Sequence record: OP114733
Length of the DNA: 64,000 nucleotides
Source: Escherichia phage vB_EcoM-pEB20
Strand: one strand, 5' to 3'
This document shows positions 30,347-62,233 of the stretch, in pieces. Each line of letters starts with the position of its first letter. The first letter of the stretch is position 1. Both the position numbers and the translations under genes were made by a program. The notes beneath the pieces were generated by a model. That model saw only the letters and a program-made list of their open reading frames with translations, was not told the DNA's origin and ran no database searches.

Positions 30347-30517
30347 ATGCAAGTTAAATTATTGTACCGTTTATTAAAAAATGGCAAGCATGATTGGTAT
30401 TTGCTTATTAAAACCGATCCGAATTTTTTCTCTGGACAACCATTTACAGTTCGTCCTACTAAACGTCAGCTTCGCAAAGCTAAACGTTCTCATCGTAACT
30501 TTTATAGAGAATATTGA
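30347..30517 (+). CDS. small basic hypothetical protein
   Basis: 56 aa from ATG 30347 with GGAAGAG SD. Confidence 0.4.
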   Translation: MQVKLLYRLLKNGKHDWYLLIKTDPNFFSGQPFTVRPTKRQLRKAKRSHRNFYREY

Positions 30518-30518
30518 T

Positions 30519-30944
30519 ATGAATATTTCTGAAACTCGCGGTAAATGGTTCAAGATTGTTAAAGAAGATGAAGAACTACAAGTCAAGTTTCCTGAATTAA
30601 AGAAAGGAACAATCATCAAGGTAATTGGTACTACGACCGAAGATGGTTATGGCGACCATGGCATTATTGAAGTGATGTTGAACACTGGTGAGAAACTTTG
30701 CATCTATGACCGTGATACTTCTCTTTGGTGCTTCTGGGAATCACATTCAATAGATGAACTCGAAGAAATTGATTCGGCTGATATTGCGGATGTGCTAGGT
30801 AGTAAACTTGGCGAATTCGAAGGTGAACGTATTTCTTATGCATTAGCTAAATTAGCCGGACAAGAAAATAACGACGGCTATGAAGGTAACCTGATGCAAG
30901 CAGCCGCAGAATACATTGAATATTTAGAAAGACGTTTAAGTTAA
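30519..30944 (+). CDS. hypothetical acidic protein (position of T4 pin, identity unverified)
   Basis: 141 aa from ATG 30519. Confidence 0.5.
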   Translation: MNISETRGKWFKIVKEDEELQVKFPELKKGTIIKVIGTTTEDGYGDHGIIEVMLNTGEKLCIYDRDTSLWCFWESHSIDELEEIDSADIADVLGSKLGEFEGERISYALAKLAGQENNDGYEGNLMQAAAEYIEYLERRLS

Positions 30945-56068: not shown

Positions 56069-57511
56069 GTGGTAGAAATTATTTTGTCTCATCTAGTATA
56101 TGACCAGGCTTATTTTTCTAAGGTCTGGCCTTATATGGATTCTGAGTATTTTGAGCGTGGACCGGCAAAAAATGTCTTTAAAATTATAAAGAGCCACGTT
56201 AACGAATATAATGCAATGCCATCTATCAATGCGTTAAAGGTGGCTTTAGATAACAGTTCTTTAACTGAAGCCGAATATAAAGGAACTTCAGACCTAATTG
56301 AAAAATTGGCTGATACTCCTGAAGACCACGAATGGTTGGTTAAAGAAACCGAGAAATATGTCCAGCAAAAAGCGATGTATAATGCTACGTCCAAAATCAT
56401 TGAGATTCAGTCTAATGCTGAACTACCTCCAGAACAACGTAACAAGAAAATGCCTGACGTAGGAGCTATTCCTGATATTATGCGTCAAGCACTTTCAATT
56501 TCGTTCGATAGTTATGTTGGACATGACTGGATGGAAGACTACGAAGCACGCTGGCTTTCTTATCTAAATAAAGCACGTAAGGTCCCGTTCAAATTAAACA
56601 TTTTGAATAAAATCACTAAAGGTGGTGCTGAAACCGGTACACTGAATGTTTTAATGGCCGGTGTTAACGTTGGTAAATCTTTAGGCCTTTGTTCACTTGC
56701 TGCAGATTATCTTCAAACAGGTCATAACGTTCTTTATATTTCTATGGAAATGGCTGAAGAAGTTTGTGCTAAGCGTATCGATGCAAACATGCTTGACGTA
56801 TCACTTGATGATATTGATGATGGTAACGTATCTTATGCTGAATATAAAGCCAAGATGGAAAAATGGCGTTCAAAATCCACATTAGGACGTTTAGTAGTTA
56901 AACAGTATCCTACTGGTGGAGCTAATGCTAATACATTTCGTGCATTGCTTAATGAGTTAAAACTTAAGAAGAACTTTGTACCATCTGTAATCATGGTTGA
57001 TTACTTAGGTATTTGTGGGTCTTGTCGTATCAGAGTTTACACTGAAAATAGCTACACATTAGTTAAAGCTATCGCAGAAGAACTTCGTGCATTAGCAGTA
57101 GAATCTGAAACAGTTCTATGGACTGCAGCTCAAGTAGGACGTGCAGCATGGGATGCTTCAGACATGAACATGAGTGATATCGCAGAATCAGCAGGTTTAC
57201 CAGCAACGGCAGATTTCATGTTGGCCGTAATTGAAACCGAAGAACTTGCACAAGCTGAACAACAACTTATCAAACAAATCAAATCACGATATGGCGATAA
57301 GAATAAGTGGAATAAATTCCTGATGGGTGTACGTAAAGGCAACCAGAAATGGGTTGAGATTGAGCAAGAAGGCATGAACACACCTAACACAGTAAATGAA
57401 AACGCAGGTGCTCAGATGCGTCAGGCAGAGGTGAATCGTACGGAACGCGTAGGTAAAGCCAAAGCAACACGTGCTGACCTAGATAGCTTAGCCAATGAGT
57501 TAAAATTTTAA
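56069..57511 (+). CDS. 41: replicative DNA helicase gp41
   Basis: 480 aa, GTG start; Walker A GVNVGKS; near-identical to T4 gp41 as recalled. Confidence 0.95.
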   Translation: MVEIILSHLVYDQAYFSKVWPYMDSEYFERGPAKNVFKIIKSHVNEYNAMPSINALKVALDNSSLTEAEYKGTSDLIEKLADTPEDHEWLVKETEKYVQQKAMYNATSKIIEIQSNAELPPEQRNKKMPDVGAIPDIMRQALSISFDSYVGHDWMEDYEARWLSYLNKARKVPFKLNILNKITKGGAETGTLNVLMAGVNVGKSLGLCSLAADYLQTGHNVLYISMEMAEEVCAKRIDANMLDVSLDDIDDGNVSYAEYKAKMEKWRSKSTLGRLVVKQYPTGGANANTFRALLNELKLKKNFVPSVIMVDYLGICGSCRIRVYTENSYTLVKAIAEELRALAVESETVLWTAAQVGRAAWDASDMNMSDIAESAGLPATADFMLAVIETEELAQAEQQLIKQIKSRYGDKNKWNKFLMGVRKGNQKWVEIEQEGMNTPNTVNENAGAQMRQAEVNRTERVGKAKATRADLDSLANELKF

Positions 57512-57517
57512 TAAAAA

Positions 57518-57537
57518 GGAGACTTCGGTCTCCTTTC
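57518..57537 (+). terminator. hairpin terminator with UUCG tetraloop
   Basis: GGAGAC-TTCG-GTCTCC then TTTCGGGGTTT. Confidence 0.6.
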
Positions 57538-57540
57538 GGG

Positions 57541-57570
57541 GTTTACATCTTCCTCTAGGCATGATATGAT
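57541..57570 (+). promoter_or_regulatory. early promoter
   Basis: GTTTACA 57541, 17 nt, TATGAT 57565. Confidence 0.5.
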
Positions 57571-57599
57571 GAACTTACACCAACCAAGAGGAAAACATT

Positions 57600-57974
57600 A
57601 TGAATATGTCTCAAGCAATTTTTACTGCAATCACCGAAAACACAACTGTTGAAGTAGTTTCTCCGCTGGCAACCTACGTTATTCTTGCTCCTAAAACTAT
57701 TGTATCTCGTATGGAAAACATGGGCAAACGTATCGTACAAATTGTTGGAGCCGGAAATCAAAAACTTGATTATCTGCGAACCATCAAAGCTTATGAACAT
57801 TTCCAACTCGAAAAAGGTTCTCCTATCCAGGTAGAACTCGTAAATGGTGATATCGTTCGAGCAATGTTCCATCATTTCTATGCATTGAATGACCCATCTA
57901 AAGCAGTTCGTTTAATTGCATACGACGCAAACCAAAACGAAATCAACGCGGATATATCTAAATTACGTTTTTAA
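57600..57974 (+). CDS. hypothetical protein
   Basis: 124 aa ORF. Confidence 0.5.
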   Translation: MNMSQAIFTAITENTTVEVVSPLATYVILAPKTIVSRMENMGKRIVQIVGAGNQKLDYLRTIKAYEHFQLEKGSPIQVELVNGDIVRAMFHHFYALNDPSKAVRLIAYDANQNEINADISKLRF

Positions 57975-58025
57975 GTTTACTTCTCCAGTAGTTGTGTTAT
58001 TATAGACCTATCAACTACTGGAGAA
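57975..58025 (+). promoter_or_regulatory. early promoter with perfect 14-bp IR TTCTCCAGTAGTTG/CAACTACTGGAGAA spanning -10 and SD
   Basis: GTTTAC 57975, -10 TATTAT 57998; 3' arm contains SD. Confidence 0.55.
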
Positions 58026-58029
58026 CAAA

Positions 58030-58347
58030 ATGAAAACCATCGATTGTAAAGCAGAATTTAAGATTTTTTATCACGGTTCAAGTAGTTCAGCTAACATCGA
58101 AAACATGCTTTGTCCTCCTGAAGAAACAGGAGTTCTGTCTGAAACTGGACGTAAGAAAAACTTGGATCGTGTATTCTTTACTGAAGATATCGGTTTAGCA
58201 AAGATTTATGCAGGACGAGCAGCCCGCTCTTATGGAGGTGAACCACGTCTCTATCGAGTAATTTCTCCGGTAGATGTAGTTCAAATGAATGATACTAAAG
58301 GCGCTACAGTTTATCACGCTGAATGGGCCTTCTGTGAGGAAATATGA
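58030..58347 (+). CDS. hypothetical protein
   Basis: 105 aa ORF. Confidence 0.5.
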   Translation: MKTIDCKAEFKIFYHGSSSSANIENMLCPPEETGVLSETGRKKNLDRVFFTEDIGLAKIYAGRAARSYGGEPRLYRVISPVDVVQMNDTKGATVYHAEWAFCEEI

Positions 58348-58532
58348 GCAAATTAACTAAAGTTACTTTTATCGGTTGGTTTAAAAGCGGTGAGATGTTC
58401 ACTAAAGATATCATGTTATCAGGTGATCGCGAAGAAATCGAGTGGGTTGCGGTACAACTTGCTGAAGTGAACAAAGCATTAGTTAAAGCATTTGTTAATG
58501 ACGAGAAAGTTTTCGAAGCAGATTTTCGATAA
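58344..58532 (+). CDS. dmd: Dmd antitoxin (inhibitor of RnlA/LsoA mRNA endoribonuclease toxins)
   Basis: 62 aa MSKLTKVTFIGWFKSGEMFTKDIML...EVNKALVKAF; closely matches T4 Dmd as recalled. Confidence 0.8.
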   Translation: MSKLTKVTFIGWFKSGEMFTKDIMLSGDREEIEWVAVQLAEVNKALVKAFVNDEKVFEADFR

Positions 58533-58545
58533 TTTTAAAATAACT

Positions 58546-58575
58546 GTTTACAAGCCCCACATACTGTGTTACTAT
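58546..58575 (+). promoter_or_regulatory. early promoter
   Basis: GTTTACA 58546, -10 TACTAT 58570. Confidence 0.5.
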
Positions 58576-58603
58576 CTTTCTATCAACTACAGAGGAAATT
58601 GAA

Positions 58604-58972
58604 ATGAAAAAATTAATCGCTTTAGCAATGGTATTTGGATTAACCGGATGTGGTGCCCATGGCTTTATCCCTAATAACGTTGGCCAACTGATTTACAATC
58701 CGAATGTTAAACAGTACGACCACCCTAAAGTTGAAGTGGAAGACCCGGTTACTGTAGGTAATCGAATGATTCAAGCTGATGCCCATGCTCAACGTTATCG
58801 TGACTCTGATACTGTAGCATTGTCAAAAGAACAACGCGTTAAAGAACATTGCTTACAGGCTACTGAAATCGCATTCATTCGCTATGTTGAAACAACTGGT
58901 AAAGAGCCTACCCAGAAACAAATCGCGAATAACTACGTACAGTGTATTGAACGTTTAAACAAATTTAATTAA
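58604..58972 (+). CDS. putative lipoprotein
   Basis: 122 aa; signal peptide with lipobox LTGC. Confidence 0.6.
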   Translation: MKKLIALAMVFGLTGCGAHGFIPNNVGQLIYNPNVKQYDHPKVEVEDPVTVGNRMIQADAHAQRYRDSDTVALSKEQRVKEHCLQATEIAFIRYVETTGKEPTQKQIANNYVQCIERLNKFN

Positions 58973-59033
58973 TTGGTTTACACCAAAGTTAAAATAAGAT
59001 ACTATAAACATAACAAATCAAGAGGAAATTAAC

Positions 59034-59282
59034 ATGGAATTATTCGTAGCTAGTTCAGTAGCAGTTTTAATCGCAGGTATTGGTTCAATCATCATTTACA
59101 TGTTGCCTTGGGTAATCGCACTTATTCGTGGTACAAAAAGCACAACAGCAATCTTCTTTGTATCTTTACTCTTTAACTGGACGATGATTGGTTGGATTGG
59201 AACTTTAATTTGGTCTATCGTTGCCGAAAAGAAATCTGCTCAGCAGCCTCAACAAGTAATTATTATTCGCGAAAAAGAATAA
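59034..59282 (+). CDS. small membrane protein
   Basis: 82 aa, two TM helices, SD AGAGGAAA. Confidence 0.5.
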   Translation: MELFVASSVAVLIAGIGSIIIYMLPWVIALIRGTKSTTAIFFVSLLFNWTMIGWIGTLIWSIVAEKKSAQQPQQVIIIREKE

Positions 59283-59286
59283 ACTT

Positions 59287-59325
59287 GTTTACATTATAGA
59301 TGGACTATAGTATAGTAGTCCTATC
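59287..59325 (+). promoter_or_regulatory. early promoter with IR GGACTA/TAGTCC (PeSL-like)
   Basis: GTTTACA 59287, -10 TATAGT, TAGTCCTATCAAA motif. Confidence 0.55.
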
Positions 59326-59345
59326 AAATCAACTAAGGAGTTAAA

Positions 59346-59639
59346 ATGAAAAAGTTATCATTGGCAGCAATCTTACTTGCAGTATCATGTGCACCAGCTC
59401 CAGTTACGGCAGGTTATGATAAAGACCTCTGTGAGTGGTCAATGACTGCAAATCAAGAAGATGTTGAACAACAAATCTTCTCTGATATCATGAACATCAC
59501 TAAAAGAGACCGTCCTAATATGGTTAATAAAGTTGTTGAACAACTTAAGTCTGGCGGTATCATGCAGTACAACTATGTTTTGTATTGTGACCCTAATTTC
59601 GATAACAAAGATATCGTAACCGAAATCACAGGTGAATAA
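59346..59639 (+). CDS. sp: Spackle (periplasmic superinfection-exclusion protein, inhibitor of gp5 lysozyme)
   Basis: 97 aa with signal peptide; AGYDKDLCEWSMTA...GGIMQYNYVLYCD matches T4 Sp as recalled. Confidence 0.8.
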   Translation: MKKLSLAAILLAVSCAPAPVTAGYDKDLCEWSMTANQEDVEQQIFSDIMNITKRDRPNMVNKVVEQLKSGGIMQYNYVLYCDPNFDNKDIVTEITGE

Positions 59640-59640
59640 T

Positions 59641-60291
59641 ATGATTTATTATATGCACAAAAACGCGCCATTTAAATATGGTAAATTTCCTAATGCACAA
59701 TGTTATAATATAACGCCGAATGAAAATAATAATGGATACCATATTGGTGTAATTTTTGTAATTGTTAAAGATAATGAAATCGTTGCCTGGGCAGATTTTA
59801 AAGGTACAACATATGATGTTAATCCGGTGCCTTTCACATATTACAATATAATGGATTTGGCATATGATTATAATTGGTTTAATCATGACACGTTGGCTCA
59901 TATTGAAGGTGTAGGATTTGACATCTCTTATTCTAGCTATTCATTATGTCCTATGAGCCGAGCTCACGGTAAAGATGCATCATATCTTTCAATTCGGAAA
60001 CGTGTAAACTTCAAACGTAGTACAGAGTATGTTGGTGGACTCTTTGTTAAAGATAATAAAATAACCCGTATTAGTTATCCTTTAAGTGTAGGTCAAAAAG
60101 ATGTTGATGTTGATTTGGACTTAACTGAAAATAACATTAATCGCATTGCTTCTGTATATTTTGATATCGATGAAAAAATTGTAGTGTGTGGATACGAATT
60201 ACCACCTGAAGAAAAGGCTGAAGCAATTGAAGTCGAATTAGAAATTTCTGTTGATGACCAAATATTTAATGCATTTATGAATCGAGGTTAA
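59641..60291 (+). CDS. hypothetical protein at T4 61.2 position
   Basis: 216 aa from ATG 59641 (AGGTGA SD); synteny only. Confidence 0.55.
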   Translation: MIYYMHKNAPFKYGKFPNAQCYNITPNENNNGYHIGVIFVIVKDNEIVAWADFKGTTYDVNPVPFTYYNIMDLAYDYNWFNHDTLAHIEGVGFDISYSSYSLCPMSRAHGKDASYLSIRKRVNFKRSTEYVGGLFVKDNKITRISYPLSVGQKDVDVDLDLTENNINRIASVYFDIDEKIVVCGYELPPEEKAEAIEVELEISVDDQIFNAFMNRG

Positions 60292-60292
60292 A

Positions 60293-60490
60293 ATGACTAC
60301 TGCAATTTGCACTGGTTCTAAAATTAGTGTTTTTACAAGTTTTGAAGATTATGAAGTTGTTTCAAAACACCAATGCCATATTAGCGTAAAAGCTAATGAT
60401 GGTGTAATTTGGAATATTCCACAGTATGAAGGCACTACATATGAAGTCACAGATATAAATGGTGATAAAGCGATCTTTGTGATTGATTAA
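60293..60490 (+). CDS. small hypothetical protein
   Basis: 65 aa ORF. Confidence 0.45.
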   Translation: MTTAICTGSKISVFTSFEDYEVVSKHQCHISVKANDGVIWNIPQYEGTTYEVTDINGDKAIFVID

Positions 60491-60509
60491 ATATACTCAG
60501 GAGGTACCT

Positions 60510-60977
60510 ATGGGTATTATTAACACTGCAATAGATTCTGTTTATGCATATAAGTTTATTCGACTAATGCAAAAACCTTTTACTGAATGGAAAGCATACG
60601 AAGCCAAAATCATCGATGAACGTGGAAGTGTTCTTAAACGTCCTTCCACTCCTGAAGAGAAAGCGGCTTATACACCTTTTCATGCTTCAGTTCGTTCAAT
60701 GAAGCGAATGATGAGCACTGTTCCAGGTCTTAATGGAATGGCCTCAATGATGTCTGCTTGGAGTGCTGTAGCTTCACGCTATAACATTACGGAAGAACAA
60801 CAGAAAGAAATATTTAAAGAACTCCCTTTATTTGAGGATATGGTTGCTGGCGATTCAGGTGGCAGCCCTCAAGCTATTGCATCAGGAACAACTACAGGTG
60901 CAGTCGTAAATAAAGGTCCAGAACAAATTCCTTCCAAGAAAAGAAAGCGAATTAAAGTAAATATTAACAAGTTGTGA
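60510..60977 (+). CDS. hypothetical protein (T4 61.1 position)
   Basis: 155 aa from ATG 60510 with AGGAGGT SD. Confidence 0.55.
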   Translation: MGIINTAIDSVYAYKFIRLMQKPFTEWKAYEAKIIDERGSVLKRPSTPEEKAAYTPFHASVRSMKRMMSTVPGLNGMASMMSAWSAVASRYNITEEQQKEIFKELPLFEDMVAGDSGGSPQAIASGTTTGAVVNKGPEQIPSKKRKRIKVNINKL

Positions 60978-61016: not shown

Positions 61017-62039
61017 ATGGCTGAATGGATAGATAATGAATTTGCTTATCGTGCGTTTTCTCACCTACCTCGTTTTAGACAAATCAATAATTCAAGCACA
61101 TTTAAATTAACGTTTCGTTGTCCAGTTTGTGGCGACTCTCAGACAGATGCAATGAAAGCCCGCGGATGGTATTATGGCGGTACTCCTGGTAATGTACATT
61201 GCTATAACTGCCAATACCACAATACAATTTCCGGATACTTAAAAGAGTATGATGAAGAGCTTTATCGCGAATATCTAATGGAAGTTCGTAAAGAAAAGGC
61301 TAGAATGGAACCAAAGATTGAAAAGGTTCCTGAACATAAACCAGAACCGGAGAAAAAGACTATAAATTCTTTGCCGTCTTGTTCTCGTCTAGACAAGTTG
61401 CCTGAAGAGCATCCTATTGTGAAATATGTTAAGTCTCGGTGTATTCCTAAAGAATCGTGGAACAGATTATGGTTCACATTGGAATGGCCTAAATTGGTCA
61501 ACAAGATTCAACCTGGCACATATAAGAAAGAGATTCCCGAACCACGTTTAGTTATTCCTATTTTTAATAAAGATGGGAAGGCCGAGTCATTCCAAGGACG
61601 TGCACTTCGTAAAGATGCTCCTCAGAAATATATCACTATTAAAGCGTTTGAGTCTGCAACAAAAATTTATGGTGTTGAACGTGTTAAGGAAGGAGACGTC
61701 TGGGTAATGGAAGGCCCTATTGATAGTTTATTCATACCAAACGCAATCGCTATTACAGGCGGCTCAATAGATTTAGATGTGGTACCATTTAAAGAACGTC
61801 GGGTATGGGTAATGGATAATGAACCTAGGCATCCAGATACTATAGCTCGCATGAAGCGATTAGTTGATGCAGGCGAACGTGTCATGTTCTGGGACCGAGC
61901 TCCGTGGAGTTCAAAGGATGTGAATGATATGGTAATGAAAGAAAATGCAACACCACAAGAAATTTTAGAATATATGAAACAGAATATTTCAAGTGGGTTG
62001 CATGCTAAAATGAGATTATCTCGTTATTCGAAGATTTAA
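61017..62039 (+). CDS. 61: DNA primase gp61
   Basis: 340 aa; N-terminal zinc ribbon CPVCGDS...CYNC; TOPRIM-like region; T4 synteny. Confidence 0.95.
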   Translation: MAEWIDNEFAYRAFSHLPRFRQINNSSTFKLTFRCPVCGDSQTDAMKARGWYYGGTPGNVHCYNCQYHNTISGYLKEYDEELYREYLMEVRKEKARMEPKIEKVPEHKPEPEKKTINSLPSCSRLDKLPEEHPIVKYVKSRCIPKESWNRLWFTLEWPKLVNKIQPGTYKKEIPEPRLVIPIFNKDGKAESFQGRALRKDAPQKYITIKAFESATKIYGVERVKEGDVWVMEGPIDSLFIPNAIAITGGSIDLDVVPFKERRVWVMDNEPRHPDTIARMKRLVDAGERVMFWDRAPWSSKDVNDMVMKENATPQEILEYMKQNISSGLHAKMRLSRYSKI

Positions 62040-62233
62040 ACCAGTCCTACAATAGCAAAGGCCAAATCAACTACAGTATCCAATGGAACAGAAGGAACTA
62101 TAATACCATGGGCAACTAACAATGGTGCAATCCCGAAGTTCCATGAAATAATGCCACCTACAACTATTGCAGCGATAGCAGTTTTCTTTTTATTGCCTTT
62201 AATAGCGTTGATTAACGATGGAAGTTTAAACAT
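62036..62233 (-). CDS. small membrane protein (only minus-strand gene candidate)
   Basis: 65 aa, two TM helices; ATG preceded by strong SD TAAGGAG with 6-nt spacing; convergent with gene 61. Confidence 0.5.
   Translation of the reverse strand: MFKLPSLINAIKGNKKKTAIAAIVVGGIISWNFGIAPLLVAHGIIVPSVPLDTVVDLAFAIVGLV

Follow-up and report, generated by a model that had tools for sequence, protein, structure and literature searches.

The 64,000-nucleotide stretch of Escherichia phage vB_EcoM-pEB20 (OP114733) that we analysed, called the window below, carries nine closely packed genes on the + strand between gene 41, which encodes the helicase (56069-57511), and gene 61, which encodes the primase (61017-62039). 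Our results indicate, with a probability of about 0.85, that this cluster is the form which the variable set of early genes located between 41 and 61 in T4-like phages takes in the RB69/Mosigvirus group. It combines two known anti-toxin genes and three genes of superinfection exclusion with the gene of a small putative ADP-ribosyltransferase and three genes whose products have no known function, and it is largely ordinary: the cluster is already known and of low novelty, its make-up having been on record since the RB69 genome was sequenced. The original prediction had seen here an anti-defence island expanded relative to T4, an interpretation that is partly supported by the analysis below. The nine open reading frames (ORFs), with the lengths of their products in amino acids (aa), are the following.

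57600-57974, + strand: ORF1, 124 aa, the equivalent of RB69ORF041c
58030-58347, + strand: ORF2, 105 aa, the equivalent of RB69ORF040c, a minimal protein with a predicted ADP-ribosyltransferase fold
58344-58532, + strand: dmd, 62 aa, identified by Pfam Dmd and homology to T4 Dmd
58604-58972, + strand: imm.1, 122 aa, identified by Pfam DUF5481, homology to T4 Imm.1 and the RB69 annotation
59034-59282, + strand: imm, 82 aa, identified by Pfam Imm_superinfect and homology to T4 Imm
59346-59639, + strand: sp (spackle, 61.3), 97 aa, identified by Pfam T4_Spackle and homology to T4 Sp
59641-60291, + strand: adfA (61.2), 216 aa, identified by Pfam AdfA and homology to T4 61.2 and RB69 AdfA
60293-60490, + strand: ORF8, 65 aa, the equivalent of RB69ORF033c, a member of phrog_3249
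60510-60977, + strand: 61.1 in its full-length form, 155 aa, with a C-terminus homologous to T4 61.1

Every one of these ORFs matches a phage protein family strongly (PHROG E-values from 1e-29 to 1e-131 across the interval), so they are real genes rather than chance ORFs. Eight had been named before, all of them present on the + strand with the starts given then, and only the 65-aa ORF8 (60293-60490) had been overlooked. A scan for RNA genes found no tRNA and no known RNA family in the interval, its intergenic gaps included.

The assignment to the RB69 group follows from the relatives of the interval. Over its full length, the 3.7-kb region is 98.3-98.8% identical to many GenBank genomes of Escherichia and Shigella phages (more than 100 Mosigvirus genomes have been published with 98-99% identity), and the near-identical relatives include AV109, mobillu, the O157 typing phages 3 and 6, and JK42; mobillu, the sole relative whose taxonomy was retrieved, belongs to the genus Mosigvirus (RB69 group). 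In RB69 itself (NC_004928) one reads, from 41 to 61, RB69ORF041c, ORF040c, dmd, 61.4, imm.1, imm, sp, 61.2, ORF033c, and ORF032c together with 61.1. Gene order and orientation are thus the same as in the window, save for 61.4 (tifA) and for a 61.1 gene that is split in the RB69 record, and the RB69 ORF1 is 100% identical to ours.

Three of the nine genes are, by homology, concerned with competition between phages. Imm.1 matches DUF5481 (37.2 bits for a cut-off of 27), has 32% identity to T4 Imm.1 (E-value 9e-19) and is a predicted lipoprotein, with a lipobox LTGC and the cysteine at position 16. Imm, in which two hydrophobic segments are visible (hence a two-transmembrane protein), matches Imm_superinfect (PF14373; 1.5e-15, 57.2 bits for a cut-off of 27.9) and is 65% identical to T4 Imm. 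By its match to T4_Spackle (PF25676; 1.1e-42, 145 bits for a cut-off of 27) and its 66% identity to T4 Sp, Spackle is predicted to be the periplasmic superinfection-exclusion protein. Imm and Spackle, and probably Imm.1, would act at the cell envelope and keep out superinfecting T-even phages. The imm and imm.1 genes of T4 are located between 42 and 43 and not in the 41-61 region, so in the RB69 group they are relocated genes and not new ones; the lipoprotein and the two-transmembrane protein that had been counted as additions to the cluster are these two.

The anti-toxin genes are dmd and adfA. Dmd, whose 62 aa fit a family of about 60 aa, matches PF17587 (3e-20, 72.8 bits for a cut-off of 27) and is 56% identical to T4 Dmd, which the literature describes as an antitoxin-mimic inhibitor of the RNase toxins RnlA and LsoA; by homology the Dmd of the window would bind and block the same toxins. 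AdfA matches PF23813 (4.4e-120, 399 bits for a cut-off of 27), is 66% identical to T4 61.2 and shares 211 of 212 residues with the AdfA of RB69. The residue at RB69 position 164 is an arginine rather than the histidine reported to be required for binding and neutralising the DarT1 of E. coli. AdfA with R164 is reported to do neither, whereas the escape variant R164H and naturally occurring alleles with H164 do both, and RB69 is blocked by DarTG1, in line with its own R164 (LeRoux laboratory, PMC11257639). This residue bears on the activity against DarT1, not on membership in the AdfA family. The AdfA of the window is probably inactive against DarT1, or else tuned to a different DarT.

The anti-toxin gene expected next to dmd is missing. 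The literature identifies 61.2 as AdfA, an anti-DarT factor, and 61.4 as TifA, a protein inhibitor of ToxN, just as the original prediction had named them; the TifA of RB69, encoded next to dmd, inhibits ToxN more potently than that of T4. In a pairwise alignment with RB69, tifA is cleanly absent from the window, over 206 bp that begin right after the stop codon of dmd, and a tblastn search with TifA gave no match between 57.5 and 61 kb. What is left is the following.

58533-58546, + strand: tifA junction, where only the last bases of the 3' end of tifA (TTTAAAATAA) remain, before the imm.1 promoter

RB69-type tifA occurs in 69 phage records, as compared with about 132 Mosigvirus records with ORF1, which means that some Mosigvirus genomes carry tifA and others do not. 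On our reading, the ToxN inhibitor has been lost from its usual site. Since there is no TifA at the dmd locus and AdfA is of the allele inactive against DarT1, this lineage is predicted to be more sensitive to toxIN than RB69 and about equally sensitive to DarTG1. We also considered whether the lipoprotein that occupies the 61.4 slot could be a diverged TifA, and rejected it: it has no similarity to TifA, and its match to Imm.1 is clear.

Outside the cluster, a 56-aa ORF of the TifA family (DUF7279) lies at 30347-30517 on the + strand, just upstream of pinA (30519-30944). It scores 54.5 bits for a cut-off of 24.5, where the TifA proteins of T4 and RB69 score about 72 bits with the same model, and it has the central basic motif of TifA, VRPTKRQ-R--KR. 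We regard it as a predicted TifA-family paralog. Other Mosigvirus genomes carry homologs upstream of pin, as do further T4-like phages of Escherichia, PP01 among them.

The element of the cluster that is worth an experiment is ORF2. Its AlphaFold2 model is confident (predicted local distance difference test, pLDDT, of 88.5), and Foldseek returned as top match the rifampin ADP-ribosyltransferase Arr (probability 1.0, template-modelling score, TM, of 0.62). The best structural matches are KptA/Tpt1 and Arr; the model also resembles AcrF11, and lower in the ranking are diphtheria toxin, PARP15 and DarT, with dozens more ADP-ribosyltransferases. Nearly all of the top matches are ADP-ribosyltransferases, and the model is assigned the split beta-sheet fold of that superfamily (H-Y-[EDQ] type). 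Three residues do not vary among the 35 homologs compared, namely H15, within a YHGS/T motif, Y60 and E103; they are candidate catalytic residues. From the fold and these residues we infer that ORF2 is a minimal NAD+-dependent ADP-ribosyltransferase. A few depositors already label homologs of ORF2 as ADP-ribosyl transferase. Sequence searches of ORF2 and ORF1 against PDB chains gave nothing usable, and our literature search found no experimental study of ORF2.

The distribution of this protein is broad and its conservation is very high. It was found in 609 phage records, Escherichia, Klebsiella, Acinetobacter, Aeromonas and Vibrio being among the hosts, and its identity to the ORF2 of the window is 60-100% in all but nine of them, the exceptions including a Vibrio phage homolog at 34%. 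Such identity across most host genera most likely means that the target is common to these hosts, be it the end of a nucleic acid or a core protein of the host. In metagenomic viral contigs (L068-L070, two of which measure 230 kb and 461 kb), the same domain is found within, or at the C-terminal end of, ORFs of about 620-850 aa.

This conservation also bears on what the enzyme may do. AcrF11 ADP-ribosylates the type I-F Cascade, and T4 Alt acts on MazF in a similar manner; ORF2 could, like AcrF11, be an enzymatic counter-defence factor that modifies and thereby inactivates a host immune protein or toxin. We consider this possible, if on the unlikely side. Very high conservation across phages of distant hosts points to a conserved target rather than to a variable defence protein, the gene is found in other genera in contexts unrelated to defence (near srd, RNA ligase or 30.6), and of the best structural matches, KptA/Tpt1 works on RNA ends and Arr on a small molecule. 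Also on the unlikely side is the suggestion that ORF2 represents a new class of enzymatic counter-defence or RNA-modifying factor, maybe working with Dmd, that protects the phage by covalent ADP-ribosylation, be it of a host toxin, of an immune protein or of an RNA end, with the Mosigvirus-only ORF1 maybe a further anti-toxin. Most likely, ORF2 would serve in host takeover or as an enzyme of broad counter-defence, without being dedicated to Dmd as its partner, and a role in host takeover or in the modification of RNA ends is favoured.

The question of a partnership with Dmd arises from the literature. Iyer, Burroughs, Anantharaman and Aravind (2022, Viruses 14:1977) predicted a phage toxin-antitoxin pair formed by an ADP-ribosyltransferase of their p0068 family and Dmd in Escherichia, Shigella and Salmonella phages. 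Their pair is very probably the ORF2-dmd gene pair. It has an ADP-ribosyltransferase directly upstream of dmd, and overlapping it, in Escherichia and Shigella T4-like phages, as in the window, and it covers only a minority of the ORF2 enzyme family. According to this hypothesis, the two genes would form a phage-borne type II toxin-antitoxin pair, with the enzyme as toxin and Dmd as antitoxin. Several observations fit it. The stop codon of ORF2 overlaps the start codon of dmd (ATGA at 58344-58347) and one putative promoter precedes both genes; the enzyme is directly upstream of dmd in all ten sampled Dmd loci that lack gp41 directly upstream; and an unrelated, Mod-like ADP-ribosyltransferase lies beside Dmd in Klebsiella phages (Iyer et al. 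2022). The scan of Dmd loci, with narrow search patterns, recovered only 15 loci; it was not a full census and missed the Klebsiella loci of these authors.

Yet co-occurrence is sparse. Dmd lies downstream of the enzyme in only 10 of 62 metagenomic loci, which is not a consistent association, and the phages of Kanagawavirus, Slopekvirus, Acinetobacter and Aeromonas that we examined never have it beside the enzyme; in the 52 other loci and in these phages the neighbour is a Cys4 mini-protein, a small transmembrane protein, a lipoprotein, gp30.6 or something else. The enzyme gene is also found at other genome positions. Conversely, T4-type phages carry Dmd without the enzyme. Where both genes occur, the enzyme is 86-100% identical and Dmd 45-98%, with no sign of co-variation. 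In these genomes, moreover, unrelated neighbouring genes often overlap by four bases. Sparse co-occurrence and the lack of co-variation imply that the enzyme is independent of Dmd. The toxin-antitoxin reading is weak, and we hold it to be very improbable.

Another small protein recurs in this neighbourhood. It is 41-46 aa long, carries two pairs of CxxC and has a C-terminal tail that is acidic (for example MEEFECVVCGCS...CLDCD...GEEE), and it is found in several genera right after the ADP-ribosyltransferase or after the ADP-ribosyltransferase-dmd pair. It could be a zinc-ribbon partner of the enzyme. Its positions in our set of loci are these.

2816-2956 of locus L005: 41-46-aa CxxC protein
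Loci L020 and L025-L027: 41-46-aa CxxC protein, downstream of the ADP-ribosyltransferase
Loci L013 and L015: 41-46-aa CxxC protein, downstream of dmd

At the other end of the cluster, 61.1 shows a different pattern. Its C-terminus is 75% identical to T4 61.1 (54 aa), and the full-length protein of 155 aa is the common form, with 588 near-full-length matches among 1473 records. The gene lies directly or almost directly upstream of the primase gene in Acinetobacter phage LemonAid, Aeromonas phage AS-zj and RB16. Such adjacency across Straboviridae subfamilies fits a conserved gene that is tied to the replication module, and does not fit an accessory gene in an arms race; 61.1 would be a conserved companion of the primase gene, truncated in T4, where the C-terminal 54 aa are kept. 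The AlphaFold2 model is moderately confident (pLDDT 66), with an N-terminal domain of helices and, after it, a disordered tail rich in Gly and Ser whose end is a basic patch, and it has no fold match in the PDB.

The annotation of 61.1 is uneven among relatives. In the RB69 record (2318-2784 of locus L003) it is split into ORF032c (63 aa) and 61.1 (92 aa), probably by a frameshift or a sequencing error, and it is intact in the window and in most relatives. Some database entries (P0169, P0223 and H98, the last from Klebsiella phage Roth67) name its homologs 'major capsid protein', an apparent misannotation that has propagated, given the size of 61.1, its position next to the primase and its predicted helical and disordered structure. 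Just after the primase gene, the only minus-strand gene of the neighbourhood (62036-62233, - strand) encodes a hydrophobic protein of 65 aa, the equivalent of RB69ORF029w.

ORF1 and ORF8 would be accessory genes of narrow range. ORF1 belongs to phrog_10668 (3e-86) and is present in 134 phage records, with an identity of at least 95% in 132; only two clusters were found in 5.8 billion proteins and only four matches in 1.84 billion representatives. On these counts it is an orphan essentially confined to Mosigvirus, with too few relatives for a useful alignment. Its only distant match, over residues 45-106, is a weak and repeated similarity to the Big_9/cadherin-like (Ig-like) repeats in an adhesin of 3411 aa that bears a type IX secretion signal (P0238); this hints, weakly, at a beta-sandwich fold. 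ORF8 (phrog_3249, 3.2e-33) has homologs in 262 phage records, nearly all from phages of Escherichia, Shigella and Salmonella; among them are records under the names Mosigvirus and Dhakavirus as well as the Salmonella phages S16 and Melville.

The arrangement of the genes suggests how the cluster may be expressed. A match to TTTAC(A/T)-N16-17-TAnnAT, of the T4 early type, is present in all five intergenic gaps of at least 55 bp, the remaining junctions being tight or overlapping. A stable hairpin precedes the first of these sites, and it is probably a transcript end or a stability element; its T-run is short and our terminator scan did not flag it.

57515-57536, + strand: hairpin with a TTCG loop (AAAGGAGAC-TTCG-GTCTCCTTT), read from the sequence, directly after the stop codon of gene 41 (57509-57511) and before the first early promoter
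57542-57570, + strand: putative promoter P1, (G)TTTACA-N17-TATGAT, upstream of ORF1, with 10 of 12 matches and a TG extension
57976-58003, + strand: putative promoter P2, TTTACT-N16-TATTAT, upstream of ORF2-dmd, from the consensus scan
58547-58575, + strand: putative promoter P3, TTTACA-N17-TACTAT, upstream of imm.1, conserved in RB69
58977-59005, + strand: putative promoter P4, TTTACA-N17-TACTAT, upstream of imm, from the consensus scan
59288-59316, + strand: putative promoter P5, TTTACA-N17-TATAGT, upstream of sp, from the consensus scan

These consensus matches suggest five independently promoted early cassettes, one with ORF1, one with the putative ADP-ribosyltransferase and dmd, one with imm.1, one with imm, and one with sp, adfA, ORF8 and 61.1 that would run into 61. 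All five would be expressed immediately after infection. The layout fits a region built by the gain, loss and relocation of cassettes.

Is the cluster then an island of anti-defence genes? The suggestion is not new: Srikant, Guegler and Laub (2022) wrote that the region "may be an anti-TA island" (TA, toxin-antitoxin) whose other genes "are attractive anti-toxin candidates", so the interpretation offered in the original prediction is an existing published hypothesis. In its strong form, it sees in most of the products of ORF1, ORF2, the lipoprotein gene, the gene of the two-transmembrane protein and 61.1 inhibitors dedicated to the toxin-antitoxin or abortive-infection systems of the host. The neighbourhood lends it some weight, since Dmd and AdfA are validated anti-toxin factors and a third, TifA, is found here in RB69 and T4; guilt by association of exactly this kind is what Srikant et al. 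proposed; and ORF1 and ORF8 are small, preceded by putative early promoters and narrowly distributed, the usual profile of counter-defence genes.

Most of the genes do not conform to this strong form. Of the six counted as additions, four (those of Imm.1, Imm, AdfA and 61.1) are not new. Imm and Spackle, and probably Imm.1, are superinfection-exclusion proteins, which act between phages and not against host defence; by the original prediction's own standard, this tells against it for these genes. The 155-aa 61.1 protein had been put among the anti-defence candidates, and it is kept beside the primase across subfamilies. ORF2 is not a small binding inhibitor but a highly conserved protein with the fold of an ADP-ribosyltransferase, in the same identity range in nearly all of its records, in contrast with fast-evolving inhibitors such as Dmd in the very loci that they share. 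TifA is absent from the interval, and AdfA is of the allele that does not neutralise DarT1. Finally, searches of NCBIfam and PADLOC returned no meaningful match for any of the nine proteins, and no defence-related model was matched. A cluster made mostly of dedicated inhibitors is thus unlikely. The status of strong candidates granted to the extra genes can be retained, by position only, for at most ORF1, ORF2 and ORF8; as real positional candidates for new anti-defence factors, only ORF1 and ORF8 are left. What stood of the earlier view is the conservation of Dmd and Spackle, borne out by their Pfam scores (72.8 and 145 bits) and their identity to the T4 proteins, and the nature of the 216-aa protein at the 61.2 position, which is AdfA.

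We thus return to a mixed early cluster of the RB69 type, an interpretation that also has points against it. The promoter consensus is only modestly enriched overall, with 24 occurrences found for 15.3 +/- 4.2 in shuffled sequences. No Pfam ADP-ribosyltransferase model is significant on ORF2, the best being Arr-ms (E-value 0.12, in 2 of 35 members) and ART-PolyVal (E-value 0.27), and, from a reading of the sequence, the second-strand aromatic residue may be F49 or F50 instead of Y60. We know of no demonstrated function for Imm.1, even in T4. The conservation of 61.1 beside the primase, for its part, is no proof of a role in replication.

Overall, the cluster illustrates usefully, and with many genes, the way in which small early genes are shuffled by T-even phages for counter-defence and for competition between phages, and its closest parallels are well-known systems. 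For ORF2 these are Arr, KptA/Tpt1 and AcrF11, all longer than its 105 aa and without significant sequence match to it, be it with their Pfam models or with their PDB sequences; if a substrate were found, it would make a fourth kind of ADP-ribosylation in T4-like phages, beside those of Alt, ModA and ModB. RB69 differs from the window by having tifA, where the window has the 206-bp absence, and by a record in which the intact 155-aa 61.1 of the window is given as two genes. T4 is more distant. It has five genes from 41 to 61 (dmd, 61.4, sp, 61.2 and the 54-aa 61.1, the 'anti-TA island' of Srikant et al. 2022 and LeRoux et al. 2022), as against nine in the window; Dmd, Sp, AdfA and the tail of 61.1 are homologous between the two, at 56-75% identity and in the shared position between 41 and 61. 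T4 has TifA, and it lacks ORF1, the putative ADP-ribosyltransferase, ORF8 and the N-terminal 100 aa of 61.1. The cluster is therefore expanded relative to T4, as had been claimed, but it is not simply that of T4 plus additions, because 61.4 is absent from it.

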